Below are positions 15,692 to 49,252 of a DNA stretch of 64,000 nucleotides, one piece after another. A model generated the notes under the pieces. The model searched no databases. It worked only from the letters and a program-made list of their open reading frames with translations, and was not told where the DNA came from. Source of the stretch: an uncultured Thermoplasmatales archaeon (GTDB taxonomy: Archaea > Thermoplasmatota > E2 > UBA202 > DSCA01); the NCBI GenBank assembly GCA_964606745.1, contig CAZSHJ010000003.1, positions 4,806 to 68,805 on the forward strand. The letters run 5' to 3'. The stretch's first letter is position 1. The number at the start of each line of letters is the position of its first letter. A program made the translations under genes and the position numbers.

Positions 15692-15692
15692 A

Positions 15693-32517: not shown

Positions 32518-32556
32518 ATAGAAAAAGCAAAAAATGTACAGAGGCATTACCTTTCA

Positions 32557-33432
32557 ATGAAAAAGCCATACGTTGCACTTTCTATTTCAATCGCATCGGT
32601 TTCATTTGCTGCGATATTCATAGTGTCGGCGGAAGCCCCGCCCCTTACCCTGGCGTTCTACCGCATTCTTTTCACTGCACTCATGGTTCTCCCGCTTGTG
32701 GCATTCAATAAAAAACACAGGGAGGAGATGGCAATGCTTCCTTCTCGCCATTTGCTTCTCATGGTCGGCATAGGAATAATTCTTGCCGCCCACTTTGCAT
32801 TGTGGATTTCATCACTTGAAAAAACCTCGGTGGCAAGCTCGGTTATACTCGTGACCGCCCATCCCATCATTGTCACACCCCTTGCATACCTCATTTTTAA
32901 GGAGAAGTCTTCCCCCGTAAATGTAGCAGGCATAATTCTGTCTGTTGCGGGGGTCATAACCCTCGTTATGGGGAACTACGGCATCCATTCCTCTACGCTG
33001 GAAGGTAATGTGCTTGCAATGCTCGGGGGGGCGGCTGCGGGTCTGTACATACTGGGCGGAAGGAAGATGCGTAAGACCGTATCAACGTCGTGCTACGCCT
33101 TCGTGGTTTATGCCGTCGCTTCCGTGATGCTGTTATCGCTCTGCATAATATTCGATTCTCCTGTTTACGGCATAAGCATGAGAGATTACGGGATAATTTT
33201 TCTGATGGCAATTGTTTCCGGGATGTTCGGGCATACGATGTACAACTGGGCACTGAAATACGTTCGTGCGTCTGTTGCATCCGTATCCCTGCTCGGGGAA
33301 CCGCTGGGTTCTTCGCTGCTGGCCTTTGCACTGCCTTGGATAAATCAGGTGCCAACTCTTTATACAATGGGCGGCGGATGCCTGATTATTGCGGGCATAT
33401 ACATGGCATCGCGGCATCAGGAATTGGATTAA
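32557..33432 (+). CDS. EamA/DMT-family transporter.
   Basis: 291 aa with 10 predicted TM helices in two repeated halves. Confidence 0.6.
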   Translation: MKKPYVALSISIASVSFAAIFIVSAEAPPLTLAFYRILFTALMVLPLVAFNKKHREEMAMLPSRHLLLMVGIGIILAAHFALWISSLEKTSVASSVILVTAHPIIVTPLAYLIFKEKSSPVNVAGIILSVAGVITLVMGNYGIHSSTLEGNVLAMLGGAAAGLYILGGRKMRKTVSTSCYAFVVYAVASVMLLSLCIIFDSPVYGISMRDYGIIFLMAIVSGMFGHTMYNWALKYVRASVASVSLLGEPLGSSLLAFALPWINQVPTLYTMGGGCLIIAGIYMASRHQELD

Positions 33433-33485
33433 ATCTGATTGGTGCCGTTAAGAGAATTTATAAATAATTTGCATATGCAAAATGT

Positions 33486-34415
33486 ATGAAAGTTGCGATA
33501 ACGGGGGCGGCCGGATATTTTGGGCAAAGAATAACAGAAAGACTTGAAGGAAACGAGGCATGTGATAAAATCGTGGGCATTTCAAGAAGAAAATTTGAGC
33601 ATTCCTTTAAAAAACTGGATTATTACCGTATGGATGTCAGGAGCGAGGAGCTGAAGCAATTATTTGGCAAATACGAAATTGATGCGGTTGTGCACCTTGC
33701 ATTTGTGGTAAACCCGATTCATGATGCCAAGGAAATGAACAGCATAGATGTCGAAGGGGCAAGAAATGTGCTGGAGGCTGCAAAGCAGGCAGGGGTTAAA
33801 AAAGTCATCATGACGAGCAGTACGATGGTCTACGGGGCATGGCCGGACAACCCAGAATTTTTGACGGAGAGCAGTCCTCTGAGAAGTCATCCGAAATATT
33901 ATTACAGTAAGGACAAGGTAGAAGTTGAAAAAATGTGCGGGGTTTTCAAGAAGCAGAATCCCGACATGATTATTACGATATTGAGACCGTGCCTTGTCAT
34001 AGGGCCGAATGTGAACCATTTTTATTCCCGGTTGGTGAACTGGCCCGTCCTCCCGCTGGTCGGAGGAAACAATCCCGGCATACAGTTTGTCCATGAGAAC
34101 GATATCGGGAGGGCATATGAATTCTTCTTAACGAACGATATCGGCGGAACGTTCAACATCGTGGGTGACGGGACGATGAAATGGAAGGAAATTATTGGGG
34201 CGGCAGAAAAAAGGGCTGTTAAAATGCCAGGCTTTATTGTTTATCCCATACTCAGCCTTATGTGGAAACTTCATCTGACGGAGTCGCCCCCGGAAATTCT
34301 GGACTTTATAAGATACAGGTGGGTTGCATCGGGAGATAAAGCCAGGAAAGCCGGATTCACCCCGGATTACAATTCCAAGGAAGCGCTCTATACATTCCTG
34401 AAAAAGAAAAAGTAG
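33486..34415 (+). CDS. NAD-dependent epimerase/dehydratase (extended SDR family).
   Basis: Rossmann motif ITGAAGYFGQ plus a YxxxK-type core. Confidence 0.7.
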   Translation: MKVAITGAAGYFGQRITERLEGNEACDKIVGISRRKFEHSFKKLDYYRMDVRSEELKQLFGKYEIDAVVHLAFVVNPIHDAKEMNSIDVEGARNVLEAAKQAGVKKVIMTSSTMVYGAWPDNPEFLTESSPLRSHPKYYYSKDKVEVEKMCGVFKKQNPDMIITILRPCLVIGPNVNHFYSRLVNWPVLPLVGGNNPGIQFVHENDIGRAYEFFLTNDIGGTFNIVGDGTMKWKEIIGAAEKRAVKMPGFIVYPILSLMWKLHLTESPPEILDFIRYRWVASGDKARKAGFTPDYNSKEALYTFLKKKK

Positions 34416-34455
34416 AAAAACTTTATTACCTGATTCAATTTACGATTACCCCTCC

Positions 34456-34528
34456 GGGCCCGTGGGGTAGCTTGGCATCCTTCCAGCTTGGGGTGCTGGT
34501 AACCCGAGTTCAAATCTCGGCGGGCCCA
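34456..34528 (+). tRNA. tRNA-Pro(GGG).
   Basis: 73 nt. Acceptor stem GGGCCCG/CGGGCCC is followed by discriminator A. Anticodon stem CCAGC/GCTGG has loop TTGGGGT (anticodon GGG, G37). T-arm CCGAG-TTCAAAT-CTCGG. Confidence 0.8.
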
Positions 34529-34844
34529 TTTCTATTTTTATCTGGCATTTGTATTTGCCCATGCATTAGCGGCTGGCTGATTTAAAAGCGCGGAGGGAGG
34601 TGCTGAATCCCACGATAAATTTTATGGTTGGAGAAGGGATTCCGCCAGCTCTCCTCTTCGTAAGAAGCCCCGCCATTCATGGCGGGGAGTATGTCACTTG
34701 TTCATTCGTCATTTGTGTGAGGATGCGCCAGTCGCTATAAGGAGAAAGGGATTTACTGAGTGTGCCTAAAACGCACATTTTCCGCTCTTTTTTGTTACTT
34801 TCCGAAGTACTGATAAAATCGATAAATTTATAATAAGTTATTGT

Positions 34845-35774
34845 TTGATACCAAATAGGATGGGAAAGATGGATATCAGGGATTACAAATCTGGTATAGC
34901 TAATTCCTTAGATATAAAAACTATTGATAACATACTCATTAAGTTGATAGTATCAGAAAAAGAAGATGACGTTAACTGCGATTATTATATGATTGAATGT
35001 TATGAAGACGATATCCGGGAAGAAGATTTTTTACGAGCTTTAGTTAATATGATTCCCCATTATGCATTAAAAAGGGAAAAATTGGATTCTCTTTCGAAGG
35101 AAAATTTTATGAAACTCAGTAAAGAAGCTTTAAGAAGATTTGTTAGAACTGAAAACTCGGGGGAAATTGGAGAACTACTGATCTTTATTTTATTAGAGGC
35201 CGAAAGGAAGGCTTCTCAATTGATAAATAAAATGGTTTTGAAGACTTCTGGGGGTGTTCACGTTTATGGTCTTGACGGAATACATATTGGGGTTCTTGAC
35301 GATGATGTTGTTCTATACTATTGTGAATCCAAAACTTACAAAGATTTAAACAAGGGCATAAATGCTGCAATATCTGATTTGGATAAATTTCATCAGGACA
35401 ACATAAAAGAAGCCTTCGAATTAGAGCTTGTTAGCGATAATATAGATGAAAAAAAGTTTGAGGGAATCAAAGATAAACTTTTGGAATTATTAGATCCTTA
35501 TACAGAAATAGATAAGAGTCACTTTAAAAAGAAATATGCAATTTTTATTGGATTTGATTGGGCTAATATCAAATCATTTAATTTTAGGCCACCTATAAAA
35601 AATATCGAAGGGAAATTATGTAAATGCCTAAAAACTGATTCCAAAACAATTTGTAATAGATGCAAATCACTTGTTGATAAAAAAACAATCAATCGTTCTG
35701 TAGATATTTTCTTTTTGCCTTTTAAGGATTCTAAAAAAATAAATAGAGATTTCGTTAGGGAGATAAAATCATGA
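34845..35774 (+). CDS. PD-(D/E)xK nuclease-fold protein, a HamA-like (DUF1837-like) candidate.
   Basis: 309 aa. GELLIFILLE...GLDGIH...VLYYCESKTYKD fits the D...ExK pattern. Its stop overlaps the start of the helicase gene. Confidence 0.45.
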   Translation: MIPNRMGKMDIRDYKSGIANSLDIKTIDNILIKLIVSEKEDDVNCDYYMIECYEDDIREEDFLRALVNMIPHYALKREKLDSLSKENFMKLSKEALRRFVRTENSGEIGELLIFILLEAERKASQLINKMVLKTSGGVHVYGLDGIHIGVLDDDVVLYYCESKTYKDLNKGINAAISDLDKFHQDNIKEAFELELVSDNIDEKKFEGIKDKLLELLDPYTEIDKSHFKKKYAIFIGFDWANIKSFNFRPPIKNIEGKLCKCLKTDSKTICNRCKSLVDKKTINRSVDIFFLPFKDSKKINRDFVREIKS

Positions 35775-38329
35775 ACCAGGGTTGGTATCAAGAATTGAGC
35801 AACCGAATAACTTCAAATGATGAATTCATTGGGGATTATCTTGAATTATCAAGGCATTTTTTCAATAATAAGCAAAATAGTCTGTCATCAAAAACCCTTA
35901 AAAGACTTATGGAGAGTGCTTCAATTTTTGCTTGCTCCTCAGAGGAAACCCATAAAAGATTGGCTTTAAAGATTGCTGGCTCAGTTATGGAGGCTGATAT
36001 TGATAATGAAGCCTTAACTGCAGCGTCTGAGTTAATATTTTTAAGATTAGGCAATTTTCCATTAATAAGAATGGCTATAGAAAAATATGAAATGAAAGAT
36101 TTTTTTAGCATTTACAATGGAAATAGACCATTGACTACTCTCTCCCTAAACTATGAACTCACCAACAAGGTTATATCAAATCAAATAGTTATCGGGAAAA
36201 ATATTGAATTATTTACAGATTTTCAATCGAATGTAATAAAATTTTTAAGTGAAAAAGAAGATCTTTCTATTTCTGCTCCTACTTCAGCAGGAAAATCTCA
36301 TGCGTTGAAATCCTTTATTATTCAATCCCTTTTGACAAAAGAAAGATTTGTAGTGGTTTATTTGGTGCCAACCAGGGCACTCATAACTCAGGTACAGAAA
36401 GAAATCAGACAATCATTTAATGAATACTCCATAACTGATGCTGAAATTTTCACCTCTTCTTGGGAAGTGGTCGGGGAGGGAAAACATGAATTTTCTAAAG
36501 CAGTTATAATTTTAACGCAGGAGCGCCTACAAACTATAGAGGGAAGGACAGATAATTTTCAAGTGGATTTTCTTGTTGTTGATGAAGCTCAAAATATTGA
36601 AAAGGGTAGTCGAGGAATTACCTTAGAAGATAGTATTATGCAACTAATTGAATGGAACCCAGATTTTCAAATTGTATTTATATCTCCTTTTAGTAAAAAT
36701 CCAAAAAAATTTGGTGAGATATTCTCTTATGAAACTAAAGACATTATAACAAAACTTACGCCGGTAAGCCAAAATATTCTTTACGTCAATATTGATGGTA
36801 AAAAAATTACTATTAAACAAGTTTCACAGGAATTAGAAAAAATTCTAGATATGGCAGAATATGATGGTGAAAAATCCCTTCCTAAAGTTGGATATAAAAG
36901 AAAATCTTGGGTTGCGTTAAATCTTGTTGATGGCAACTCTACACTAGTTTATTGTGATGGGGCTCATGATTGTATAAGAACTGCACATTATCTTGTAGAT
37001 AATGCCAAAAATGCATCACTAAATAATAAAGAACTTGATGACGCTGGTAATTTTCTAGCTTCTTATATTCACCCACAATATTATCTTGTCGATTTCATCA
37101 AGAAAGGAGTTGGTTATCACTATGGAAACATGCCAGCTTCTGTACGGACTATTGTAGAATCACTGTTTAAAAAGAGATTAATTAATTCTGTGTGCTGCAC
37201 AAGTACATTATTAGAAGGCGTTAACTTTCCAGCAAAGAATATTATTTTGTACAGACCGAAAGTCGGTTTGAAAAACCCTATGGACAAGTTGGGATTTTTA
37301 AATTTAGCTGGACGAGCTGGGAGATTGATGGAAGATTTTGTGGGTAATATTTACTGTATTAACCCCCAAGAATGGAGGGATGGTTATACCCCAAAATCAA
37401 CACCAGAAGACCATGAAATTGGAAGCTCTATGGAAGATGTTGTAAAGAAGAAAAAAGATGAAATTATTAGTCATTTGAAAAAGTATGTAAAGAAAAGAGA
37501 TAATGAAGATGTCATGGTAGCAGTCACTAGATTTTTGGTAAATGAAATTAGAAAAGGAAACAAAGAGTTTGTGAAAAATCTGTTGCAACGTGATAAAGAA
37601 ATTCGAAAACAAGACCTAGATGACATTGTTAAAATGGTTAAACAAATTGTAAGTGAAATAGAATTAGATGGTAAAATTATTATTAAAAATAGGGCTATTG
37701 ACCCCAGATTACAGAATAGATTGTACTTGCACCTTCAAAAAATGGACGAACCTCCTTTGCCCCTTCATCCATCAAATTTTGAATTTTATGAGTCTTTGTT
37801 AAAAATATTAAGTGTAACTAACGAGATATTCCAGAGGAAAAAACCCGAAAATTCGTTAAAATTCACAGCTTGGCTTTCAAAGTCATGGTCAAACGAGGAA
37901 CCTTTAAATGAAATTATCAAACAAAGAATCTCGTATAAATCCAAAAACACTCAACTTACAAAGAAGAAAATCAATGATATAATAGAAGATGATATTATTA
38001 AACATATCAATCATAGAATAAGATACGAGGTAGTTAGGGATTTTAGTTGTTATATCTCTATACTTAAATATGTATTAGAAGAAAAAGATGGGGTGCCTGA
38101 ACATTTTGATGAGAAAGTACCATATTATTTGGAAATTGGGGCAAGTACACCCACCACGATCACTTTAATCAATAACGGCATTCCAAGATCGCTTGCATTA
38201 TTATTTTCTGAGCATCTGCCTGAAGATTTACAGGATTTTGAACTTTGCAAGAAATATATTGAGCAAAATGAAAGTTATATCAAACAAAAAATCTCACCCG
38301 CCTTATACAAAGAATTAGTATTGTTTTAA
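35771..38329 (+). CDS. Ski2/Hel308-like SF2 helicase, a HamB-like candidate.
   Basis: 852 aa with motif I ISAPTSAGKSHAL, motif II FLVVDEAQNI, GVGYHYGNMP (an HHAGL-like motif), CTSTLLEGVNFPAKNIILY and motif VI NLAGRAGRLMED. Confidence 0.55.
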   Translation: MNQGWYQELSNRITSNDEFIGDYLELSRHFFNNKQNSLSSKTLKRLMESASIFACSSEETHKRLALKIAGSVMEADIDNEALTAASELIFLRLGNFPLIRMAIEKYEMKDFFSIYNGNRPLTTLSLNYELTNKVISNQIVIGKNIELFTDFQSNVIKFLSEKEDLSISAPTSAGKSHALKSFIIQSLLTKERFVVVYLVPTRALITQVQKEIRQSFNEYSITDAEIFTSSWEVVGEGKHEFSKAVIILTQERLQTIEGRTDNFQVDFLVVDEAQNIEKGSRGITLEDSIMQLIEWNPDFQIVFISPFSKNPKKFGEIFSYETKDIITKLTPVSQNILYVNIDGKKITIKQVSQELEKILDMAEYDGEKSLPKVGYKRKSWVALNLVDGNSTLVYCDGAHDCIRTAHYLVDNAKNASLNNKELDDAGNFLASYIHPQYYLVDFIKKGVGYHYGNMPASVRTIVESLFKKRLINSVCCTSTLLEGVNFPAKNIILYRPKVGLKNPMDKLGFLNLAGRAGRLMEDFVGNIYCINPQEWRDGYTPKSTPEDHEIGSSMEDVVKKKKDEIISHLKKYVKKRDNEDVMVAVTRFLVNEIRKGNKEFVKNLLQRDKEIRKQDLDDIVKMVKQIVSEIELDGKIIIKNRAIDPRLQNRLYLHLQKMDEPPLPLHPSNFEFYESLLKILSVTNEIFQRKKPENSLKFTAWLSKSWSNEEPLNEIIKQRISYKSKNTQLTKKKINDIIEDDIIKHINHRIRYEVVRDFSCYISILKYVLEEKDGVPEHFDEKVPYYLEIGASTPTTITLINNGIPRSLALLFSEHLPEDLQDFELCKKYIEQNESYIKQKISPALYKELVLF

Positions 38330-38444
38330 ACAATCTGGATTTTCTGCAGTTATCGCATTGCGGATAACCAATTCCCACCTCTTCTGTTGGAGTATGTCCC
38401 AATATATCATCTCTCTTTATGAAGTTATAATACATCCTGTAATA

Positions 38445-38588
38445 CCGTCTCGCTCCCCCCTACTTGTGCGTTCCTGTGAAACCCCCCTACTATATGTATA
38501 TAGATATATAATAGGAATTAGTAAAACATTTCCGGCGAGTGTGTAACGATCGGGAGCGGACAGGCACCAATCAACAGATAGAAACACC
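38445..38588 (+). repeat. Intergenic repeat family R, copy 1 (3' portion).
   Basis: CTTGTGCGTTCCTGTGAAACCCCCC...TATATGTATATAGATATATAATAGGAATT...CAACAGATAGAAACACC followed by a T-run. It is about 85% identical to the copy at 44365. Confidence 0.7.
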
Positions 38589-38865
38589 AATATTTTTTTA
38601 CAATAAGGTCGCCTATTGTAGAAAAGGGGCGGAAATGTACCGGAAATTTTATTTTTGCTGAGCGGTAATGAGCAAATAGTGAGAGGATTGAATGCAGTAT
38701 TCATTATCTTTTATTCCCTCAAACTTTCGATTTTTTCCTCCACTGTAGCAGAATTTTATAATATTTTGCAACCCGTATTTACCACCCGTTTTGCTCGCCA
38801 CCCAAAACCCGAAGATTCGCCAGACCATAAACCAATACTTTTTTAAATAATGTAGTAATATAAAA

Positions 38866-39354
38866 TTGTTTAACATGTTATCCAACACGACAAAGGAGAA
38901 TGCAACGCAAACGGATATGGAAGAATTAGGGCAGTGTAAATTTTGCTCTATGATTAAAAACAAAAGAAATTATGATACTTTCATTACTGAATTAAATTAT
39001 GGCTATGTTTTTCTTAATCCAAATCAATCTTATAAAGGTCGAGTAATATACATACTTAAAGAGCACATCGAAGATTTTACCGAAGTTGATAACGATTTGT
39101 TTTTAAATTTCTGTGGAGAAATGAAGCAGATTGCAAAAATAACTAAACAAACTTTACAGAATCCCCTAATAAACGTTGCTATCCTCGGTAACAAAATTAA
39201 ACATCTGCATTGGCACATAATTCCAAGATATAAGTACGATAGTCGGTGGAATGGACCCCCTTGGCCAATTGATACAAAATTATTGAATCCTGACGAGTAT
39301 AAGGAATTGGCACTTTTGATAGGGGGGAAATTGAAGGTACTTAAAAATGACTGA
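38866..39354 (+). CDS. HIT-family nucleotide hydrolase/transferase.
   Basis: A histidine triad HLHWHIIPRY plus an N-terminal Cys pair (CKFCS). Confidence 0.7.
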   Translation: MFNMLSNTTKENATQTDMEELGQCKFCSMIKNKRNYDTFITELNYGYVFLNPNQSYKGRVIYILKEHIEDFTEVDNDLFLNFCGEMKQIAKITKQTLQNPLINVAILGNKIKHLHWHIIPRYKYDSRWNGPPWPIDTKLLNPDEYKELALLIGGKLKVLKND

Positions 39355-40354
39355 AATAATAAGATATAGAAAAACACCCGTTGGTTTGAATGATATCGGA
39401 AAATTTCCAGCATTGGAGGGAAACTGGAATTACTCTTACAAGAGTCTAAAAAATTTAAATCTTGCTTTCAACGAAAAATTAGATATAGACTCGGAAAAAA
39501 CATCAATTGTGCTAATGGGGTCTTTTGGTAGATATGAAGCATGCCCGTTTTCAGATATAGATTTAGTTGTTGTTTCAAATGAAAAAGAAACTGAGATAAA
39601 AAAAATAAGAAGTAACGCTTTAAAAATTGGTCGAGAATTGAGATTTTTAGCACCTAATCCTAAAGGCGTTTTTAGCCAAGTTAAACCAATCGATTCTTCA
39701 ATACGGGATATTGGAAGCCATAAAGTTGACGATAGTTTTCAGCTATCGCAAAGACTCTTATTGCTAATGGAATCAACACCTGTCTGGAATAAGACATTCT
39801 ATGATGAAATCATCGATAGATTGCTCGAGAGATACTCTTATTATGTAATCGAGGAACCGAAAAAAGAGCAGATATTCCTATTGAATGACACCATCAGATA
39901 TTTTCGCACAATTTGTGTCAATTACCAACACTCTTTTTGGAAAGAAAACGAAAAATGGGCTATTAGAAATATTAAATTAAATCATAGCAGAATTATTATG
40001 TTTGCAGGACTATTATTTCTCATTCTTAACTCCAGCAAAAATAGAACAGACAAAGTGAACTATATGAAATCCCACATGAAATTAACCCCACTAGAACGAA
40101 TCATCCATGTCTATAATGATAACAATGATACAAATGTTGAAAGAGTTGTTGGTTCATACAATGTTTTTCTTGGAAAAATGAGTGATAAGAATATTCGAAA
40201 TAGTCTAAATATTGATTACGTAAATCGGTATTTAAATCCAATATATGCTGAATTAAAAGTCAACGCATGTTTATTGACGGCTGAGCTAACACGCTTTATA
40301 TTTTCTATGATGGGTCACTGGACGAATAGCATATTTGAATATCTTATTTTTTAA
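39347..40354 (+). CDS. Pol-beta-superfamily nucleotidyltransferase (GlnE/DUF294-like or CD-NTase-like) with a C-terminal helical domain.
   Basis: LMGSFGRYEACPFSDIDLVVV matches the GS...DxD NTase motif. The gene overlaps the HIT gene by 8 bp. Confidence 0.5.
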   Translation: MTEIIRYRKTPVGLNDIGKFPALEGNWNYSYKSLKNLNLAFNEKLDIDSEKTSIVLMGSFGRYEACPFSDIDLVVVSNEKETEIKKIRSNALKIGRELRFLAPNPKGVFSQVKPIDSSIRDIGSHKVDDSFQLSQRLLLLMESTPVWNKTFYDEIIDRLLERYSYYVIEEPKKEQIFLLNDTIRYFRTICVNYQHSFWKENEKWAIRNIKLNHSRIIMFAGLLFLILNSSKNRTDKVNYMKSHMKLTPLERIIHVYNDNNDTNVERVVGSYNVFLGKMSDKNIRNSLNIDYVNRYLNPIYAELKVNACLLTAELTRFIFSMMGHWTNSIFEYLIF

Positions 40355-40419
40355 TAACAATATTAAGTCTAAAATCTTAATCTCTAAATGCCCATTTTAT
40401 TTTCACAAATATAGCCAAG

Positions 40420-40640
40420 TCTAAGTATGTAACCGCTAGCTTGAATAAGTTTAAGACATTTTGTGGAGGACAGATGAGATTCACTGAATGCTATCCCATA
40501 TTGGACAGTTAGTAAGTTTCCAAATATTTAGTACATGAAAACATAGAAACAACAGCTCGATACCTACATTTGATAGATGGAGACTTGCGAAAATTAATCA
40601 ATAATCCAAATGTAAAAGACCCTCTCACGCAAAGAAACGG
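40420..40640 (+). pseudogene. Frameshifted 3' remnant of a tyrosine recombinase/integrase.
   Basis: In one frame, ...GGQMRFTECYPILDS* (RHT-box-like). In a second frame, YLVHENIETTARYLHLIDGDLRKLINN, which matches the LGH...TT..Y.H catalytic Tyr region. Confidence 0.45.
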
Positions 40641-40850
40641 CAAAAATCGATATGCCATTGTAAAACCCTATCCGTTGAATGAAATGGGCCCACAGGGGCT
40701 GGGAGGGTACAGCGAAACATTTTTCCTGTTCTTGTATTTCCGATAATGATTGCGGTCATTTTACCCTTCACTTTTAGGGTAAAACAGAAGGATGTCATTT
40801 CGACCTAATTTAAGCCGTGCTGGCCTTATCGTATCTACATCTGGTTCTGT

Positions 40851-41037
40851 CAATAAATTCGGTTCTGGTGCAATTCCGGGTCTTTTCTCTCCACAAACGT
40901 TACGCCGTCCCACTTGTGCGTTCCTGTGAAACCCCCCCCACCATATACACATATATATGTTATAGGAATCTTAATTTCATTGCCGTTTGCCGGCACGCCA
41001 ATGCAGGGGACGTGAGGGTGTTCAACAGATGTAAAAC
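40851..41037 (+). repeat. Intergenic repeat family R, copy 2 (full length).
   Basis: ATAAATTCGGTTCTGGTGCA...CACAAACGTTACGCCGTCCCACTTGTGCGTTCCTGTGAAACCCCCC...TATA-rich...TTCAACAGATGTAAAACCC followed by TTGATTTTTT. Confidence 0.7.
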
Positions 41038-41285
41038 CCTTGATTTTTTAAGAATAGCCTTCTCATCTTCTCCAACAAAGAAAATCTTTTGTACTCGTCC
41101 TTTGACCTGTGCAAATGTCCAGGAAATACTCCGAGTTTGTTATATTCACTGAAAGCACCTTCGCTTTCTGGGTGCTCTTTCTCCATCTCATTTTTTATTT
41201 TAGCAAACAGGGTATGGAGCTGAATTAATTCTTCTTTTTGCATCCTGTCACGGTGGGATAAATAAATTTGGTTTAGAATGTGCAA
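41022..41285 (-). CDS. Hypothetical small protein.
   Basis: 87-aa ORF that overlaps the 3' end of repeat R2. Confidence 0.3.
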   Translation of the reverse strand: MHILNQIYLSHRDRMQKEELIQLHTLFAKIKNEMEKEHPESEGAFSEYNKLGVFPGHLHRSKDEYKRFSLLEKMRRLFLKNQGFYIC

Positions 41286-41884
41286 TGTCCAAACTCTGGA
41301 GGATTTCCAATCTTTCCGTACAACACAGTAATCCTTCCTAACACTTCATCTATTAAAGATTGATCATTATTCATCCACTTCAAATCATTTTTTAATTCGT
41401 CGTGAATACTTTCACAATCTACCGCAACAGCATCTTCTTTAGCAATGACACAAAAATAAAACTGCACATCACCATTTATCTTGTACTCATTTCCACCCAT
41501 ATCGCCAGTTACGGGATTGAACAGGAGTTTCTCTGAAAAATTATTTCTTGCTTTAAAATAGTCCACGAATTTATAAAAGTCACCCTGATAATAAGGGTAA
41601 TTAGAATGTTTTAGCTCTACAAATGCTGTTATCTCCCCGCCCTTACATATTAGGTAGTCTGGAGAATAGTGCCCCAAGTTTAACAAGGTAGGCTTTGCAA
41701 ATAATTCATACCCATCTTTCTCGATGTTTTTTATTAGGTAATGGCCCAAACGAAAGTCCAGGTCGCCTTCATAGGCTATTTTTCCATCCTCATAGTATCG
41801 TTTAATATCTTCATTCCATATCTTCAAAATCACTGTTTTAATCATAGAATTTTCATCATGCATATAGTTTAATCCTGTTTCCAA
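41273..41884 (-). CDS. Hypothetical protein with a possible PD-(D/E)xK nuclease motif.
   Basis: 203 aa. HYSPDYLICKGGEITAFVELKHS fits a PD...ExK pattern. Confidence 0.35.
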   Translation of the reverse strand: METGLNYMHDENSMIKTVILKIWNEDIKRYYEDGKIAYEGDLDFRLGHYLIKNIEKDGYELFAKPTLLNLGHYSPDYLICKGGEITAFVELKHSNYPYYQGDFYKFVDYFKARNNFSEKLLFNPVTGDMGGNEYKINGDVQFYFCVIAKEDAVAVDCESIHDELKNDLKWMNNDQSLIDEVLGRITVLYGKIGNPPEFGHCTF

Positions 41885-41908
41885 TATTTAAGCATTACTG
41901 GTTCACTC

Positions 41909-42025
41909 GGGTTCTGTTTCAAATACAGGTCTTTTCCCTGCACAAACGTTACGCCATCATACTTGCGGGTACTGTGAAACCCCCCCGCTATATGTATATA
42001 GATATATTATGGGAATTAGATTACT
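41909..42025 (+). repeat. Intergenic repeat family R, copy 3 (5' and TATA portion, diverged).
   Basis: GGGTTCTGTTTCAAATACAGGTCTTTTCCCTGCACAAACGTTACGCC...CTGTGAAACCCCCCCGCTATATGTATATAGATATATTATGGGAATT. Confidence 0.65.
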
Positions 42026-42170
42026 CATCAGAAATGTTTTTGTTTTTCATTTAGAAGCTTAGCTATTTCATCTGATTTGGTCTGACCTGTTTCTTTTAGT
42101 TTCTTATATACTTGTGAATCCAACTGATTAAGTAAAAGTTTAAGTAGAATCTTTACATCTATCTCCATAG

Positions 42171-42428
42171 GTGATGAAAATGATAGAGGCTTTTATCTTA
42201 TTGACGCTAGAGGCGGATAAAGTCAAGGAAGTACTTAAAAATATAAAGAAAAAAGTACCTGAGGTCAAAGAAGCAAAAGGGATAACAGGACCGTATGATG
42301 CGATACTTCGGGTAGATGCAAAGGATCTACAGGATCTTACAAGAGAGATTGTCTCCACAATCTACAGAATAAATGGGGTCATTGACACAACGACAGCAAT
42401 AGTCATAGAATCAAGTGAAGACGAATAA
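42171..42428 (+). CDS. Stand-alone Lrp/AsnC-type ligand-binding (RAM) domain protein.
   Basis: 85 aa. MIEAFILLTLEADKVKEVLKNIKK.PEVKEA.GITGPYDAILRVDAKDLQDLTREIV....GV.DT.T.IVIE matches the AsnC C-terminal domain. Confidence 0.6.
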   Translation: MMKMIEAFILLTLEADKVKEVLKNIKKKVPEVKEAKGITGPYDAILRVDAKDLQDLTREIVSTIYRINGVIDTTTAIVIESSEDE

Positions 42429-43641
42429 TCATATTATTGGAATTTTATCAATGTCAAACAATCCTCCTAAGAACATAAATTCATCATCCTGCAGGGAAGA
42501 TTATGCTAGAAAAAGAAAGATATTAAGAAGAAGAAGATTAAGAAGAGAAAGAATACTACTCCATCAAATTAGAAGAAATACAAAGATCGCTGCTTTTAGA
42601 ATATCAACAATTAAAGTTGAAAAACTTAGAATAACTCCGGTAGAAGGTCTGGCGATACTCGTGGGTACACTGGTAGGGGCGGGAGTTCTTGGTTTACCTT
42701 ATGCTGCATCAAAGGTAGGTCTTATACCAGCAATGGGGATTTTATTTGGAATTATGCTGCTCATGCTTTTCACATCATTCATTGTCCTAAAATTATCAGC
42801 TGAAATGGGTGGAGCCCAAATGAGTACAATTGCACAAAGCTCTCTAGGTAAAACCGGTGGCTGGATAATGTACCTCAGCATCATGATAACGGGTTTCGGA
42901 GCTTTTCTCGCCTATATAGCAGGAATTGGAAGTATTTTCACAAATTTATTTGGAGTTAACGAGACCATTGGGGCCATCTTTTTCTGGATTCTTGCTTCAT
43001 CTGTAATATACTTGGGTTTGGAGGCCAGTGGAAAAACAGAGTTGATAATGAGCTTGTTGCTGCTAGCTATTTTCATAGGTATAACCGGTATGCTTCTCCC
43101 ACATGCAAGATTAGAGAATGCGCTCTATGCAGATTATACCGGTATATTTTCTATGATGGGTGTTGTCATATTTGCTTTTGGATTCCATACGGTTATACCA
43201 GATGTTTATAGAGGAATTGGAAGCTACAAGAAAACGAAGAAAATTATTGTATTGGCATTCCTTATCCCCACTGTTGTCTACGCGGTTTTTATGGTTGTAT
43301 TCCTAATGACATTTGGCAAAAATACTCCTCAGGTAGCAACCCAGGGGCTTGAAACCATTTATAATGGAATGGGAAACGTTGTTGGTAATGCGTTACCCTT
43401 AATTGCTATAACAACAAGTTATATCGGATTGGGTCTTGCACAGCAAAGTAACAGTAAAGAGTTCCTCAGATTGAAAAAACCAGCTGCATGGGCACTGACC
43501 GTTGTTCCACCAATAATTATTTATCTTGCAGGTGTAAAAAACTTTGCCGATATTCTATCATTTTCAGGTAACACTGGTGACCTGATGGCTTTCATAATTC
43601 TTCCTATACTGATATGGATTATAAGACGTGTTTCCCGATGA
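42415..43641 (+). CDS. Amino-acid permease (APC/aromatic amino acid transporter-like) with a basic N-terminal extension.
   Basis: 408 aa with about 11 TM helices. It overlaps the RAM-domain gene by 14 bp. Confidence 0.55.
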   Translation: MKTNNHIIGILSMSNNPPKNINSSSCREDYARKRKILRRRRLRRERILLHQIRRNTKIAAFRISTIKVEKLRITPVEGLAILVGTLVGAGVLGLPYAASKVGLIPAMGILFGIMLLMLFTSFIVLKLSAEMGGAQMSTIAQSSLGKTGGWIMYLSIMITGFGAFLAYIAGIGSIFTNLFGVNETIGAIFFWILASSVIYLGLEASGKTELIMSLLLLAIFIGITGMLLPHARLENALYADYTGIFSMMGVVIFAFGFHTVIPDVYRGIGSYKKTKKIIVLAFLIPTVVYAVFMVVFLMTFGKNTPQVATQGLETIYNGMGNVVGNALPLIAITTSYIGLGLAQQSNSKEFLRLKKPAAWALTVVPPIIIYLAGVKNFADILSFSGNTGDLMAFIILPILIWIIRRVSR

Positions 43642-43887
43642 TTAGCATACATCTTCAAAAATGATAGATAACTCTGCTTTGTGGAGGGGGGTGACAGATT
43701 CCACGATAAATTTTGCGGTTGGTGCACCGGTTCTGGTGCATATACGACTGTTACTATTTAGTTGGTGCATTCGACTGTCACACTCCTTCCCATTAAATCC
43801 AACATTTTATTCCTTCCAAGATTTAAGTCAATCCCTGCTTCCTCTGCCGGAGCGAACCGTAACGGGTTCTGGTGCAAAAGTGGCATT

Positions 43888-44310
43888 TTATAGCTTTCCT
43901 GCGAACTCGTCGAGTTCCCTTTCCCAGTTTCCTGTCAGACCGTTGCCGGTATTGGCATCTTTTCCGACCTTAAAATCCACGCCGGCCACCTTAACCATAT
44001 TCTTCTTCGAGAGAAGTTTCTCCATCTTTTGAAGCCAGTTCCTTTCCATTGCATGTGTGTTGATTATAGCGTATCTTTTTCCTTCCATGTCCTCCAGCTT
44101 CTTCATAAAACTCCTCATGTTCTTCTGGATGTTGAATGCCTCAGTCGGGGCAGAGAATACATACAGGTTTGCTTCGGGCATTGCGACAGGGTTTGCCTCA
44201 TCGGTTTTGAAAATCTGGACTTCCCCTTTCTCCCTCAGCTTTTCTGCGAGGTAATCAACAATCTTCTTTCCGTTGCCATATCTTGACCAATAAACGGTGA
44301 CATATTTCAT
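43888..44310 (-). CDS. Flavodoxin-like fold protein.
   Basis: 140 aa. MKYVTVYWSRYGNGKKIVDYLAEKL resembles a flavodoxin N-terminal phosphate-binding loop. Confidence 0.4.
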   Translation of the reverse strand: MKYVTVYWSRYGNGKKIVDYLAEKLREKGEVQIFKTDEANPVAMPEANLYVFSAPTEAFNIQKNMRSFMKKLEDMEGKRYAIINTHAMERNWLQKMEKLLSKKNMVKVAGVDFKVGKDANTGNGLTGNWERELDEFAGKL

Positions 44311-44364
44311 AAACTCACCAGTATAAGATACGAATCATATATAAGAATGTAACAGTAAACATAT

Positions 44365-44543
44365 GGTTCTGGTGCAAATACAGGTCTTTTCCCTTCACAA
44401 ACGTTACGCCGTCCTACTTGTGCGTTCCTGTGAAACCCCCCTGTTATATGTATATAGATATATAATAGGAATTGATAAAACGTTTCCGGCGTGTGTGTGG
44501 CGATTGGGAGCTGACGGACACCATTCAACAGATGTAAAACCCC
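44365..44543 (+). repeat. Intergenic repeat family R, copy 4 (full length).
   Basis: GGTTCTGGTGCAAATACAGG...CTTGTGCGTTCCTGTGAAACCCCCCTGTTATATGTATATAGATATATAATAGGAATT...TTCAACAGATGTAAAACCCC followed by ATTATTTTT. Confidence 0.7.
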
Positions 44544-44544
44544 A

Positions 44545-44718
44545 TTATTTTTCGGCAATCATATATGGAATCCCATCCTTTATTTTGTATGTGGCTCTGC
44601 ATTTCGTGCATGTGAACATTCCCTCCAGGATATCATCGCCTTCCATTTCTTTCACCTCCAGCTCAAGTTCGCCACGGCATGCGGGACAGCACATCATCTG
44701 GATAAATTCTTTCTTCAT
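44545..44718 (-). CDS. Trm112-like zinc-ribbon small protein (57 aa). It is missing from the ORF track, which uses a 60-aa minimum.
   Basis: Translation of the reverse strand gives MKKEFIQMMCCPACRGELELEVKEMEGDDILEGMFTCTKCRATYKIKDGIPYMIAEK, carrying the CPxC...CxxC Trm112/UPF0434 signature. Confidence 0.6.
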   Translation of the reverse strand: MKKEFIQMMCCPACRGELELEVKEMEGDDILEGMFTCTKCRATYKIKDGIPYMIAEK

Positions 44719-44761
44719 CATTATGACATAAACAAATTAAATAAAAATGTGATTACCATAC

Positions 44762-45544
44762 ATGCGTCTTGCACTGAAAATTGCATATGACGGAACATAC
44801 TACCATGGTTACGCCCGCCAGCCCGGCATTGTCACAATCGAGGGAGAAATTGCGAGAAAATTGGAGGAGATGGGTGCAATTAAAAGTGGAAAAGATTCAT
44901 ACCTTCAGGTTGCATCAAGGACGGACGGGGGTGTCAGTGCCGCGGGAAACGTAATTGCTTTTGACACCGATATGGATAGCAACTCAATTGTGAATGCTCT
45001 TGTCCATGCCCTGAAGGAGATATGGGTTGTGGGTTTTGCAGAGGTGCCGTGTGATTTCAATCCGCGTTACGCCATGGGTAAAAAATACAGATACTACCTT
45101 TACAATGACGGGCTTGATGTTGATGCCATCAAAAATGCGGTGGGATTGTTTGTGGGAGAACACGACTTCACAAACTTTGCCCGGCTGGACGGGAGAAATC
45201 CCGTAAGGAGAATCCGGAAGGCAAGGGTTTTGCCCGGCAGGATAATGAAGATGGATTTCGAGGGCAATAGCTTTTTATGGAATCAGGTAAGACGTATGGC
45301 GGCTGCGGCGGAAAAAGCCGGAAGGGGAGAGATTTCTGCGGAAGATATCGGGAATGCTCTGAGGGTAAAATGTAGAAAAAGTTTTGGTACTGCACCGCCG
45401 GAAAATCTGCTGCTAGTAAGTGTAGCATACCAGGAAAGTCTGGATTTTCATCCGGTCAGAAAATCGGAAAAGTTTGTGTCCGGCACATTAAAAAAGTTGG
45501 AATTGAGGACGACAATGGCGAGCGACATTATGACATTCTTGTAA
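44762..45544 (+). CDS. truA: tRNA pseudouridine(38-40) synthase TruA.
   Basis: LKIAYDGTYYHGYARQPG, with the catalytic Asp in the RTDGGVSAAGN block. Confidence 0.8.
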   Translation: MRLALKIAYDGTYYHGYARQPGIVTIEGEIARKLEEMGAIKSGKDSYLQVASRTDGGVSAAGNVIAFDTDMDSNSIVNALVHALKEIWVVGFAEVPCDFNPRYAMGKKYRYYLYNDGLDVDAIKNAVGLFVGEHDFTNFARLDGRNPVRRIRKARVLPGRIMKMDFEGNSFLWNQVRRMAAAAEKAGRGEISAEDIGNALRVKCRKSFGTAPPENLLLVSVAYQESLDFHPVRKSEKFVSGTLKKLELRTTMASDIMTFL

Positions 45545-45606
45545 ACGCAATTGAACGAAATAAATATATACACATTTCCCATTCTTGTAAGTAAGGTGAT
45601 TGTATA

Positions 45607-46308
45607 ATGAAAGCGAATGCAGTTAAATTTGGTTTGGTTTTGGGGGTGGCAGCACTTTTGGTTGCGCCGATGTTATTTGCACCGGCATCTTCGAGTGATT
45701 CGCCGAAGGTCATACCTGTAAACTGCTCTGTTGTAAAGCAAAAAGGGGCTTCTCTTGACATGCAGCAAACAATAACAGTCAGGGAGGCGAAGGAATTAAC
45801 CCGGAAATGCAATGATGCGGCGCAGTCGTTCGAGGTACTCTGTTCGAATTCATCCTCTGATGGGGAGAAGGACAGGGCAAGGGAGATTATAGAAAATGCA
45901 GTGGATATGATGATAGACCTTAATATACTGACTGCAGAATATGCTACGTATGTGGCGAATATGCTGTTCTGGCCATGCGGACCGTCACACGGCTTTGACA
46001 TATTCGCACCCGTAATCAGTGTGGGGCAGGGTTGCTCGTGGATTCCCCTTTATCCTGGAGAAGCGTTCCTGGGCATTATGCTGAGGCCTATATTTGTGTT
46101 GTATCCCCTCGTGGGTTATACGGCTTCTCTCGGTGTTAACCTGTTGCCGCCGCGAATAGAGTACTGGGATCTTGTCGGACCGCAGGTCTTTATGGCATGG
46201 GGATTTGCCGGGATATACCTCAACTTCGGTAAGATCGGGCTTGGAGTGCCTAATACAAATTTCATGCTAGGTTATTCTATTGCCACGGCGGGAATAAGCC
46301 TTCTTTAG
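45607..46308 (+). CDS. Secreted/membrane hypothetical protein.
   Basis: Signal peptide and C-terminal hydrophobic segments. Confidence 0.4.
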   Translation: MKANAVKFGLVLGVAALLVAPMLFAPASSSDSPKVIPVNCSVVKQKGASLDMQQTITVREAKELTRKCNDAAQSFEVLCSNSSSDGEKDRAREIIENAVDMMIDLNILTAEYATYVANMLFWPCGPSHGFDIFAPVISVGQGCSWIPLYPGEAFLGIMLRPIFVLYPLVGYTASLGVNLLPPRIEYWDLVGPQVFMAWGFAGIYLNFGKIGLGVPNTNFMLGYSIATAGISLL

Positions 46309-46371
46309 AGCTTTTTCCTTTTTTATATTTTTTTAACTTTTTTAAAATTTTTTTGATGCCAAATTTTATTA

Positions 46372-49214: not shown

Positions 49215-49252
49215 TATTTCATCTCCGGGGATTATGAAAATGGGAAAGATTA

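Follow-up and report, generated by a model that had tools for sequence, protein, structure and literature searches.

Hachiman is a nuclease-helicase defence system in which HamB detects DNA ends that are damaged or free, upon which the HamA nuclease is released and both viral and host DNA are destroyed; the D-E(x)K motif of HamA was defined in the same work (PMC12278908). Tyrosine-integrase islands, defence islands included, are known from bacteria and archaea, where they lie immediately 3' of a tRNA gene, are foreign in composition, carry an integrase alongside mixed defence and accessory cargo and are absent from relatives. We found these features, with the integrase as a pseudogene, in an island within the window, the 64,000-nucleotide stretch of archaeal DNA which we analysed. 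Unlike those islands, it has no duplicated tRNA 3' segment (attL/attR), the insertion point follows the final base of the tRNA instead of falling within the gene, and the direct repeats inside the island are ~190-nt units which bear no relation to the tRNA. We consider it likely that this locus, in an uncultivated and probably Thermoplasmatota-related archaeon, is a mosaic island acquired horizontally, no longer mobile, and lodged between tRNA-Pro(GGG) and trm112; overall the island is genuine and of a fairly common kind, with some private repeats that lack an explanation.

The island (34529..44544, 10,016 bp) starts at the base after the left anchor, tRNA-Pro (anticodon GGG; 34456..34528, + strand; ARAGORN, Rfam tRNA 53 bits), the sequence of which is identical to that of the tRNA in one relative (L060). 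It is followed by the right anchor, a trm112-like gene (44545..44721, - strand; Pfam Trm112p E = 1.5e-10), and by the core gene truA (44762-45544), and the coordinates confirm the statement of the initial annotation that core genes resume with these two at 44.5 kb. Four relatives (L059, L060, L061 and L063) carry the order epimerase, tRNA-Pro, trm112 and truA. In three of them the 3' end of tRNA-Pro is 1-5 nt from the trm112 stop codon, versus 10,016 bp in the window, and in the fourth (L063) the gene order is kept with a 5'-truncated tRNA-Pro, of which the last ~23 nt remain and the 5' two-thirds are lost. As trm112/truA abut tRNA-Pro in the relatives, the interval 34529-44544 is an insertion, which begins at the base after tRNA-Pro(GGG) and reaches precisely to the stop codon of trm112, the gene that runs convergently to the tRNA. 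The relatives differ among themselves as much as they differ from the window (truA 57-67%, ELP3 74-79% identity), and therefore the empty order is the ancestral one. The proposal that the interval was inserted and is not ancestral is thus upheld by synteny, while the term hotspot is not, since every sampled relative has an empty site. It should be noted that the relatives compared are related only at family or genus level (truA ~65% identity), which is too distant to date or count the insertion events.

The composition of the island is foreign. GC content was 0.44-0.49 at 31-35 kb, 0.32-0.37 at 35-43 kb and 0.41-0.43 at 43-45 kb, bearing out the fall noted earlier beyond tRNA-Pro, and was 35.4% over the whole island vs 43.1% for the rest of the window. 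GC3 was 0.49-0.55 in the flanking genes and 0.26-0.43 in the island genes (0.26-0.36 for most) with the exception of a flavodoxin gene (0.57), and it climbs from 0.26 on the tRNA side to 0.57 at the far end. AT-rich composition alone does not make the island unique, as the window contains further AT-rich patches at 15-17 kb and 21-25 kb; in the suggested tetranucleotide analysis, deviation was equally high at 16-30 kb and 48-54 kb of the window.

The initial annotation had listed a Hachiman-like nuclease/helicase pair, a HIT/nucleotidyltransferase pair, a nuclease-fold gene and a tyrosine-integrase 3' remnant in the island, and all four were recovered in our searches. A complete Hachiman nuclease-helicase system (HamA/HamB) is predicted from the translated genes. 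The gene for the DUF1837 nuclease, hamA (34869..35774, + strand; Pfam HamA E = 1.4e-47, PADLOC HamA1 E = 7.6e-50), was called from the ATG at 34869, the mechanical open reading frame beginning at a TTG at 34845, and overlaps by 4 nt the gene for the SF2 helicase, hamB (35771..38329, + strand; PADLOC HamB1 E = 2.7e-186 over residues 26-848; Pfam DEAD and Helicase_C). As in Hachiman type I (Tuck et al. 2024, PMC12278908), two overlapping genes form an operon, both proteins match PADLOC HamA1/HamB1 nearly end to end, and the D-E(x)K motif is present in HamA (...DGIHIG...CESK...) as are Walker A, DExx and motif VI in HamB (its translation contains APTSAGKS, VVDEAQ and LAGRAGR). Unlike the studied E. 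coli Hachiman, in which helicase motif II is DEGH, the island HamB has DEAQ, and the island system belongs to an archaeal host.

A HIT-family hydrolase gene (38875..39354, + strand; Pfam HIT E = 4.6e-12; PDB HIT proteins E = 2e-8), with the His triad HLHWHII, is the first of a two-gene operon and overlaps by 8 nt a Pol-beta-type nucleotidyltransferase (NTase) gene (39347..40354, + strand; Pfam NTP_transf_2 E = 3e-7). The NTase has a conserved C-terminal helical domain and an invariant G-S-x-G-R...S-D-x-D motif, and its 197 homologues come from both Bacteria and Archaea (best 50% identity). The same two genes are also paired in two outside contigs (L067 and L068) at 40-50% identity, one context being a Mucilaginibacter conjugative-element-like region and the other a recombinase/SLFN/HigB neighbourhood; both are mobile or defence contexts, and one is bacterial. 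HIT and NTase form a conserved operon which is a defence candidate. PDC-M70 is a PADLOC phage-defence candidate proposed by guilt-by-embedding (bioRxiv 10.1101/2024.01.29.577857), and the island NTase has a full-length match to PDC-M70A (E = 3.6e-41). Unlike in PDC-M70, the NTase partner here is the HIT hydrolase, which among PADLOC profiles matched no PDC-M70 component and only a Thoeris-associated HIT profile (E = 2e-7).

The gene at 41273..41884 (- strand) encodes a protein of 196-203 aa from a small unnamed family with the PD-(D/E)xK (restriction-endonuclease-like) fold, for which 66 homologues were found among 1.84 billion representatives. P75-D76...E90-x-K92 is invariant in this family, the AlphaFold2 model of the 203-aa protein has a pLDDT of 94.5, and the top Foldseek matches were NucC, PspGI, SfsA and EcoRV (best E = 1.4e-3); the product is predicted to be a stand-alone PD-(D/E)xK-fold nuclease. 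Next to it is a UPF0058-family gene (41022..41285, - strand; Pfam UPF0058 E = 7e-15) which covers only profile positions 1-52 of 87 and was apparently cut short at its 3' end, at the junction with a repeat copy, R2. Further along are a stand-alone AsnC/Lrp ligand-binding domain gene (42171-42428, + strand; Pfam AsnC_trans_reg E = 7e-15; GC3 0.36), with a 46-codon open reading frame upstream of it (42028-42168, - strand), a Trp/Tyr-permease-family transporter gene (42415-43641, + strand; Pfam Trp_Tyr_perm E = 6e-30; GC3 0.32) and the short flavodoxin-like gene (43888..44310, - strand; Pfam Flavodoxin_5 E = 1.3e-8), which may not be of foreign origin given its host-like GC3. Defence or defence-candidate modules make up two to three of about five. 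The UPF0058, AsnC-domain, permease and flavodoxin genes, all non-defence, had not been listed previously.

We identified a tyrosine-integrase pseudogene at 40447..40746 (+ strand), of which the last ~60 codons are left, with two in-frame stops and the catalytic-Tyr region VSKYLVHENIETTARYLHL. The Pfam Phage_integrase match was weak (E = 0.04, profile positions 148-168 of 172); among 5.8 billion sequences searched, the remnant matched a 156-aa PF00589 protein (P0121) with 59% identity (E = 3e-7). At the DNA level 40514-40634 is 78.5% identical to contig L066, in which the integrase relative adjoins an ApeA gene and small element genes; the nearest relative is one in a small mobile element beside an ApeA (HEPN) gene. 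The remnant is the dead C-terminus of a tyrosine integrase, a hallmark of mobility, and it lies ~260 nt upstream of R2. We scanned the island for any part of tRNA-Pro and found no copy beyond chance. At best, the tRNA-proximal and distal junctions resemble each other in CCCAT..TATTTTT, a similarity reached by 274 of 2000 shuffles, and because it is not above chance no att core can be mapped; the att mapping which had been proposed thus gave neither a tRNA-derived duplicate nor a core.

Where at least five copies of one intergenic repeat had been claimed, we found two families, both far above chance (0 of 100 shuffles match). The main family is a ~190-nt unit in four direct, co-oriented copies which are 79-88% identical, each forming the right end of a gene module. 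R2 (40858..41056) and R5 (44365..44552) are full length, the right end of R2 being the last codons and stop of the UPF0058 reading frame and R5 ending on the trm112 stop codon and a T-run. R1 (38459..38605) consists of the 3' two-thirds of the unit (87% identical to 44413-44552 over 140 nt), and R3 (41910..42019) of the 5' part and an AT-rich palindrome, its 3' third missing (88% identical to R5 over 109 nt); all four are on the + strand. The conserved centre is a TATA-like palindrome, and copies of the first 12-17 nt of the repeat occur at 43729-43745 and 43865-43876. Flanks to the right of the copies showed no conservation when aligned, although conserved flanks would be expected there if related elements whose att sites have two arms had been arrayed in tandem. 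The repeat as two degenerate patterns gave no matches in JGI metagenome contigs, one of these patterns gave none in viral contigs, and the 3.8-kb stretch 38330-42170, covering R1-R3, had no blastn match in plasmids or phages; as the repeat was found nowhere else searched, no donor element family can be demonstrated.

Four diverged repeat copies at module ends, the GC3 gradient and the integrase remnant near R2 together suggest that assembly of the island took more than one step. Small elements of tyrosine-recombinase type would have inserted at or beside the tRNA end, the newest nearest the tRNA, each leaving a ~190-nt recombination-arm repeat at its own right end; later deletions would have taken out integrases and parts of repeats, and a small IS200/IS605-derived HgcC-like element would have landed on the left edge. 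We offer this specific serial-insertion mechanism tentatively, as close to an even call. For the earlier reading of repeated site-specific integration and decay at the tRNA, the insertion and the integrase remnant speak in favour and the att evidence does not, leaving serial site-specific integration plausible but unproven. In-situ duplication of the repeat is equally compatible with the data. Somewhat unlikely is a single acquisition of a pre-assembled 10-kb composite, or a local rearrangement in which the ~190-nt units are internal duplicates of an AT-rich, promoter-like intergenic segment. Such an origin would suit a repeat which no search turned up outside the island and which has no att core or conserved right-hand arm. 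Three of the four copies also immediately precede the start of a gene on either strand (R1 before HIT-NTase, R3 before the nuclease and AsnC-permease genes, R5 before the flavodoxin gene), and the TATA-like centre is what a promoter-like segment would have; R2, however, has no gene start beside it. The divergence between copies also counts against such an origin, R2 and R3 truncate neighbouring sequences, with the 3' end of UPF0058 replaced by R2, and the climb in GC3 across modules suggests different ages or donors.

Integron cassette arrays likewise have one co-oriented repeat at the 3' end of each module beside a fixed site, and we think it improbable that the repeat is a cassette-type recombination site by which a trans-acting recombinase stacked modules, as in an integron, at a fixed entry point beside the tRNA. 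Every module has one repeat at its right end, all in the same orientation, left ends are without conservation, and the genes nearest the putative entry point have the most foreign composition. Three long copies share a closing stem (CUGUGAA/UUCAACAG) with five compensatory pairs in the variable part, but covariation in three or four copies is negligible evidence and the folds are no more stable than shuffles (z-scores +0.2 to -1.4). Unlike integron arrays, the island has no intI or attI, the tRNA side holding syntenic core genes with no integrase gene or attI-like site; its repeats are long, conserved in sequence and not in structure alone and without a significant hairpin, and its modules are multi-gene and in both orientations. 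That the common ancestor already had the 10 kb and the relatives lost it is very improbable. The comparison is limited to distant relatives (truA 57-67% identity) and deletions do happen at this site, as in the L063 tRNA-Pro, but loss would need a base-precise deletion in each of four mutually divergent lineages, bringing the tRNA to within 1-5 nt of the trm112 stop. The foreign composition, the integrase pseudogene and sporadic defence genes with nearest homologues that include bacteria, and star-like distances which suggest that the island lineage is nested among empty-site lineages, also argue for acquisition. An assembly artefact wrongly joining island and chromosome is more improbable still. 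The source is a metagenome-assembled contig and one Logan assembly breaks within the left end of the island; at that break, however, two Logan contigs overlap by 23 nt with a perfect hairpin at the centre of the overlap, a typical graph artefact, and jointly they reproduce 25878-49467 at 100% identity. One (L001, 25878-34692) includes the tRNA and runs on 164 nt into the island and the other (L069, 34670-49467) joins HamAB through trm112, truA and ELP3; L070 (38751-40744) and L071 (38751-40704) are also identical at 100%, so that the island recurs in independent assemblies.

The second repeat family is the pair 34592-34642 (R0) and 43683-43733. The repeat first quoted beside the tRNA does recur, with corrected coordinates (its 23-mer sits at 34609-34631 instead of 34606-34632, and again at 43700-43722 with three mismatches); rather than being a first, partial copy of the main repeat, it belongs to an HgcC-like RNA element. 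HgcC is linked to the 3' ends of IS1341-type tnpB (PMC4615843, PMC4247193). The element at 34593..34710 (+ strand), a structured RNA of the IS200/IS605 right-end or tnpB-associated type, holds R0 and a UUCA-tetraloop hairpin (34668-34687) and has a fold z-score of -2.2. Like HgcC, IS200/IS605 right-end RNAs and PATE-like derivatives, it matches the whole Rfam HgcC model (RF00062; 38.5 bits against a gathering score of 50; E = 4e-6 over the island, 2.6e-5 over the window), and its GC-rich UUCA-tetraloop hairpin resembles IS1341-type right ends. Unlike HgcC RNAs, it scores under the gathering threshold, no transposase gene (tnpA or tnpB) adjoins it, and the related copy at 43683 has just the first 40 nt in common. 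That copy, R4 (43683..43795, + strand), which had no match in Rfam, contains in its apical hairpin TGCACC-GGTTCT-GGTGCA the opening 17 nt of the main repeat (43729-43745) and is strongly structured, with a fold of -46.9 kcal/mol (z-score -5.1) which none of 200 shuffles reached.

The island, a 10,016-bp interval at 34529-44544, begins immediately after tRNA-Pro(GGG) (34456-34528, + strand), which was the sole tRNA found in the window by ARAGORN and Rfam, and ends at trm112 (44545-44721, − strand), which is followed by truA. For a comparison of gene order we used contigs encoding truA homologues (61-68% identity) from a protein collection. The following order was common to four relatives, L059 (NCBI GCA_964595325.1), L060 (JGI 3300033156), L061 (Logan SRR26901928) and L063 (JGI 3300033141): DEAD helicase, EamA, epimerase, tRNA-Pro, trm112 (− strand), truA, a gene of 234 aa, UbiA, ELP3 (− strand) and a large PKD protein. 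In L059, L060 and L061 tRNA-Pro ends only 1-5 nt from the stop codon of trm112, so trm112 and truA directly follow the tRNA, which is the arrangement that the initial annotation had proposed to look for. These four relatives are as distant from each other as they are from the window (truA 57-67% and ELP3 74-79% identity), and therefore the empty arrangement is ancestral and the window carries an insertion of 10,016 bp, with the same boundaries as first suggested; ancestral presence of the region followed by its loss in the relatives is unlikely. Foreign DNA has been inserted base-precisely between tRNA-Pro and trm112. Left of trm112, a more distant relative (L064/L065, truA 54% identity) has different genes, and it lacks all genes of the island. 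The locus had also been described as a defence-enriched hotspot, a term which is unsupported because the site is empty in every relative sampled.

It should be noted that tRNA-Pro of L063 (4540-4590) is reduced to its last ~23 nt (GAGTTCAAATCTCGGCGGGCCCA) beside the trm112 stop; ARAGORN calls no tRNA in this contig because the 5' two-thirds are gone. This truncated tRNA may be the scar of an earlier recombination or deletion at the same site, and it hints at no more than recombinational activity there.

GC content in 1-kb windows fell from 0.44-0.49 at 31-35 kb to 0.32-0.37 at 35-43 kb and was 0.41-0.47 from 43 kb, with a value of 0.354 for 34529-44544 vs 0.431 for the remaining window. The drop in GC described initially was therefore present, and the island is the longest low-GC stretch in the window, but the interval is not unique by composition: shorter AT-rich patches are also found at 15-17 kb and 21-25 kb, and the tetranucleotide deviation at 16-30 kb and 48-54 kb equals that of the island. 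The zone of high deviation at 48-54 kb is a PKD-repeat gene of 1802 aa which is kept in the relatives. Composition by itself is thus insufficient to set the island apart from the rest of the window. GC at third codon positions (GC3) was 0.49-0.55 in the flanking core genes, 0.26-0.27 in hamA and hamB, 0.29 in the nucleotidyltransferase (NTase) gene, 0.34 in the HIT gene, 0.35 in a gene encoding a 203-aa protein, 0.32-0.36 in the permease and AsnC-domain genes, 0.43 in the UPF0058 gene and 0.57 in the flavodoxin gene. The genes closest to the tRNA are the most foreign and those at the far end the most host-like, and these values support insertion of the island.

Independent assemblies of the region make an assembly error unlikely. 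At 100% identity, contig L001 corresponds to 25878-34692 and runs past the tRNA 164 nt into the island, and L069 corresponds to 34670-49467, spanning from upstream of hamA to trm112, truA and ELP3; contigs from two further samples, L070 (38751-40744) and L071 (38751-40704), are also 100% identical to the window. L001 and L069 overlap by 23 nt (34670-34692), and their break coincides with a perfect hairpin, CCCCGCCATTCATGGCGGGG. As the overlap sits on a palindrome, the break between these Logan contigs is technical (a graph artefact) and not a sign of population or strain heterogeneity. Both the empty-site and the filled-site sequences are clean and usable for study.

With up to 3 mismatches allowed, the 3'-terminal 25 or 16 nt of the tRNA had no second copy, and local alignment of the whole tRNA with the island gave a top score of 8-9, shuffled tRNAs averaging 9.3. 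At the tRNA the junction reads GGGCCCA/TTTCTATTTTTATCTGG, and at the far end it reads AAAACCCCA/TTATTTTTCGGCAAT. Aligned with each other, the two junctions gave CCCAT..TATTTTT at best, which was equalled by 274 of 2000 shuffles and, not being above chance, was rejected as an att core. Mapping of an att core by aligning the repeat copies and the distal junction with the 3' flank of the tRNA, as the initial annotation had suggested, was negative, and no recombination core could be demonstrated. Since there is neither a copy of the tRNA nor similarity between the junctions, the island was inserted after the tRNA and not in it. Defence-enriched islands adjacent to tRNA genes are of a well-known kind. 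Like elements which integrate at tRNAs by means of a tyrosine recombinase, this island lies at the 3' end of a tRNA and is absent from relatives; unlike them, it contains no functional integrase and no attL/attR repeat of the 3' segment of the tRNA. Compared to a textbook tRNA-adjacent island it has no tRNA-derived att duplicate, and it contains long private repeats at the boundaries of modules and an orphan HgcC-like element.

Hachiman is a characterised system, and its two genes were found on the + strand of the island with a 4-nt overlap. hamA (ORF 34845-35774, called start 34869) matched Pfam PF08878 HamA (E = 1.4e-47), with the DUF1837 domain (PF08878) aligned at profile positions 2-230 of 230, and PADLOC HamA1 (E = 7.6e-50), while hamB (35771-38329) matched PADLOC HamB1 (E = 2.7e-186) over residues 26-848. 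By inspection of the translation, not of a structure, HamA carries the D-E(x)K motif (...GLDGIHIG...LYYCESKTY...), the motif given as the nuclease site by Tuck et al. (PMC12278908). The ATPase/helicase motifs of HamB are intact: Walker A APTSAGKS, motif II VVDEAQ (DEAQ) and motif VI LAGRAGR. Judged by these profiles and motifs, hamA-hamB is a complete type I Hachiman operon with a predicted antiviral role, and the island represents a base-precise horizontal insertion containing this complete system in a poorly sampled archaeal lineage.

The HIT protein contains the histidine triad HLHWHII (H-x-H-x-H-x-x), matches Pfam HIT (E = 4.6e-12) and, among HIT proteins in the PDB, resembles generic Hint-type hydrolases. 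The NTase is of the pol-beta type (GSFGRY...SDIDLVVV) and its gene overlaps the preceding HIT gene by 8 nt. It matched the PADLOC candidate PDC-M70A (E = 3.6e-41, residues 20-335 vs profile positions 19-355 of 355), and the HIT gene beside it had no PDC-M70 profile match in PADLOC at E ≤ 0.01; PDC entries are untested candidates which originate from “guilt by embedding” (bioRxiv 10.1101/2024.01.29.577857). Homologues of the NTase (197 detectable, top identity 50%) are scattered across Bacteroidota, Desulfobacterota, Acidobacteriota, Firmicutes, Cyanobacteria, Bathyarchaeota and Nitrososphaerota. A HIT gene lies directly before the NTase gene in both of the two further contexts inspected: in a Mucilaginibacter chromosome (L067, 5523-6999) the pair is found among TraG/TrwB, ArdC and serine-recombinase genes, resembling a conjugative element, and in a JGI metagenome contig (L068, 5568-7038) it is found among serine recombinases, a SLFN/AlbA_2 gene and HigB. 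Across the island and these two contexts identity was 40-41% for HIT and 48-50% for the NTase. When the NTase was compared to solved structures, the N-terminal pol-beta core alone gave matches (minimal NTases, kanamycin NTase and the DrrA AMPylase), and the conserved C-terminal 200 residues had no relative among these structures.

The HIT and NTase genes are a cross-domain two-gene module tied to mobile elements. The NTase would nucleotidylate a target and HIT would remove or limit the modification, following a toxin/antitoxin-like or immune-effector logic, and the two genes may together form an uncharacterised immune or toxin-antitoxin module common to Bacteria and Archaea. As the pair is kept together in three mobile or defence contexts and the NTase matches a PADLOC candidate, it is reasonable to assay it for defence or toxin-antitoxin activity. 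It is the most actionable by-product of this analysis and, together with the PD-(D/E)xK family, may be more useful than the island.

This PD-(D/E)xK family is represented by the 203-aa protein (− strand), for which we found 66 homologues among 1.84 billion representatives; the family is small and is without a name or Pfam model. In 31 aligned members P75, D76 and E90 are invariant and K92 nearly so (at least 90%). An AlphaFold2 model built with alignment input had a pLDDT of 94.5, and in a Foldseek search of the PDB all ten of its top ten matches were of restriction-endonuclease fold, the best being NucC, PspGI, SfsA and EcoRV, with E values of only 1e-3 to 2e-2. The (P)D...(D/E)xK motif and the restriction-endonuclease-like model bear out the nuclease fold which had been assigned at the outset. 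The remaining cargo includes a UPF0058 gene (− strand) in which 52 of 87 profile positions were matched, N-terminal ones only, a 46-codon ORF, a gene for a stand-alone AsnC/Lrp ligand-binding domain, a transporter of the Trp/Tyr-permease family and a short flavodoxin on the − strand between the permease and trm112. The items named in the first list of genes were correct, but four non-defence genes, those for UPF0058, the AsnC domain, the permease and the flavodoxin, were missing from it.

The tail of a tyrosine integrase was found in the 500-nt gap after the NTase gene, where the translation of 40447-40746 reads ...MRFTECYPILDS, two in-frame stops, then VSKYLVHENIETTARYLHLIDGDLRKLINNPNVKD... 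Approximately 60 C-terminal codons are left and the gene is not functional. Its similarity to Pfam Phage_integrase was limited to E = 0.04 at the extreme C-terminus of the profile. The sole match in a collection of 5.8 billion proteins was P0121 (156 aa, PF00589, ...FRHYFATSVYNATKDLLKVSKYLGHENIETTARYLHLRKLINHSNVKD...), at 59% identity and E = 3e-7, and the DNA encoding P0121 is 78.5% identical to 40514-40634. P0121 is located on L066 (JGI 3300033150, 3.6 kb), where, in the stretch 751-2509, an ApeA_NTD1/HEPN_Apea gene directly precedes it and several small ORFs of element type follow. On the basis of this match and its context, the remnant, as originally called, is genuine and derives from a mobile-element integrase family which travels with defence genes. 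P0121 is itself no more than a C-terminal half of 156 aa, possibly a split integrase of the SSV type that marks the edge of an integrated element with a HEPN defence gene. Querying viral contigs with P0121, the NTase or the 203-aa nuclease gave nothing useful.

Two families of repeats were identified in the island, both far above chance. The main unit of ~190 nt is present in four copies, all on the + strand and with pairwise identities of 79-88%: R1 (38459-38605, without the first third), R2 (40858-41056, full), R3 (41910-42019, without the last third) and R5 (44365-44552, full). Each copy closes the right end of a module, namely HamAB (R1), HIT-NTase with the integrase remnant (R2), UPF0058 with the nuclease (R3) and flavodoxin (R5). 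The right end of R5 falls on the trm112 stop codon, and the truncated UPF0058 ORF takes its last codons and stop from R2. Within the unit a conserved centre, ACTTGTGCGTTCCTGTGAAACCCCCC, is followed by an AT-rich palindrome, TATATGTATATAGATATATAATAGG, and a T-run at the end. The main unit did not fold better than shuffles on either strand (z-scores +0.2 to −1.4) and had no Rfam match, and was therefore rejected as a structured RNA; an alifold of the three long copies gave a common closing stem with a few compensatory pairs, which from three sequences is a hint only.

No further copy of the main unit was found elsewhere in the window or in the other loci retrieved, including L066, and degenerate patterns of it gave no matches in viral contigs or in JGI metagenome contigs, a set which evidently does not contain the window's own contig. 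The 3.8-kb stretch 38330-42170 had no blastn match in plasmids or phages. These searches led us to reject a widespread MITE or sRNA. By eye the unit has no terminal inverted repeats, and the flanks to the right of R1, R2, R3 and the tRNA have no mutual similarity. The start of R3 (41907-41935) reads TCTGT-TTCAAAT-ACAGG-TCTTTTC, a perfect T-arm-like element with a canonical T-loop and seven more bases, while the other copies have GGTGCAAAT at this position, with weaker stems. Since the feature is not kept in the other copies and Rfam detects no partial tRNA, it was not accepted as a tRNA T-arm and the likeness is taken as chance, although a tRNA-derived site, least decayed in this copy, could also lie behind it.

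The second family consists of R0 (34592-34642) and R4 (43683-43733), with 75% identity across 51 nt. A match to Rfam HgcC (RF00062) at 34593-34710, 64 nt from the tRNA, has R0 as its 5' part; it aligned to the full model with 38.5 bits (gathering score 50; E = 4e-6 for the island and 2.6e-5 for the whole window) and includes a GC-rich hairpin capped by a UUCA tetraloop. In published work, HgcC RNAs, like this tetraloop, are associated with IS1341-type (tnpB) transposase genes, at their 3' ends, and with palindrome-associated derivatives (PMC4615843; PMC4247193). There is no tnpA or tnpB near the HgcC-like element and no transposase domain in the window ORFs scanned, and it is therefore an orphan of the right-end type; orphan copies are known from Thermococcus (PMC4247193). 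R4 has only the first 40 nt in common with R0. The 120 nt surrounding it (43680-43800) fold at −46.9 kcal/mol (z-score −5.1 vs shuffles) and match no Rfam family. Because the apical hairpin of R4, TGCACC-GGTTCT-GGTGCA, carries the first 17 nt of the main unit, the two repeat families are physically linked. Three to four copies of the motif GTT(C/G)(T)GGTGCA and a long closing stem, GGAGGGGGGTGACAG / CTGTCACACTCCTTCC, were also seen in 43680-43800.

The island is thus an insertion of foreign DNA with defence and accessory cargo, a dead integrase and co-oriented private repeats at the ends of modules. As to how it was built, we tentatively favour stepwise additions of integrase-borne DNA beside the tRNA, with a little less than half of our confidence. 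Small integrase-borne elements would have joined successively next to the tRNA, the newest additions lying nearest to it and so accounting for the GC3 gradient, and each would have left one arm-type repeat at its right end; the integrases, parts of R1 and R3 and the end of UPF0058 would later have been lost by deletion, and an IS200/IS605-derived element would have inserted at the left edge. In the main rival, which we consider rather unlikely, the island would have arrived in one event or would be mainly of local origin, and the repeats would be duplicated promoter-like segments. A scan for sigma-70 promoters and terminators, which does not apply to archaea, was uninformative.

The gradient in GC3, suggesting as it does that the newest modules are nearest to the tRNA, also fits a third possibility, an integron-like gene-capture array. 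The ~190-nt units would then be cassette-type recombination sites, one at the right end of each module, stacked at a fixed entry beside tRNA-Pro by a recombinase encoded elsewhere. However, there is no intI or attI upstream, where the genes before the tRNA are the syntenic DEAD helicase, EamA transporter and epimerase, and attC sites conserve structure and not sequence, yet the copies are well conserved in sequence and give the unremarkable fold z-scores described for the main unit. We regard this possibility as highly doubtful; if true, a Thermoplasmatota-related archaeon would possess a gene-capture system like that of integrons. The private boundary repeats and the orphan HgcC-like element could shed light on the growth of archaeal islands, but current views are not overturned.

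Elsewhere in the window, a second AT-rich patch at 21071-25135 (GC 0.33-0.39) contains a 478-aa ORF without a Pfam match, a PIN-domain gene (22607-23020, − strand), a CorA transporter and a 110-aa orphan, and may be a further accessory region. The AT-rich stretch 14990-16830 (GC 0.33-0.35) encodes a 252-aa protein which consists of the CDC48 N-terminal and domain-2 modules only, without the ATPase domain, and which is flanked by two ORFs without a convincing family match. At 17259-20767, where GC skew is unusually strong (0.16-0.47), a Metallophos gene is followed with a 4-nt overlap by a gene for an 802-aa SMC/Rad50-like ATPase; this is most simply an archaeal Mre11-Rad50 operon and not a defence system.
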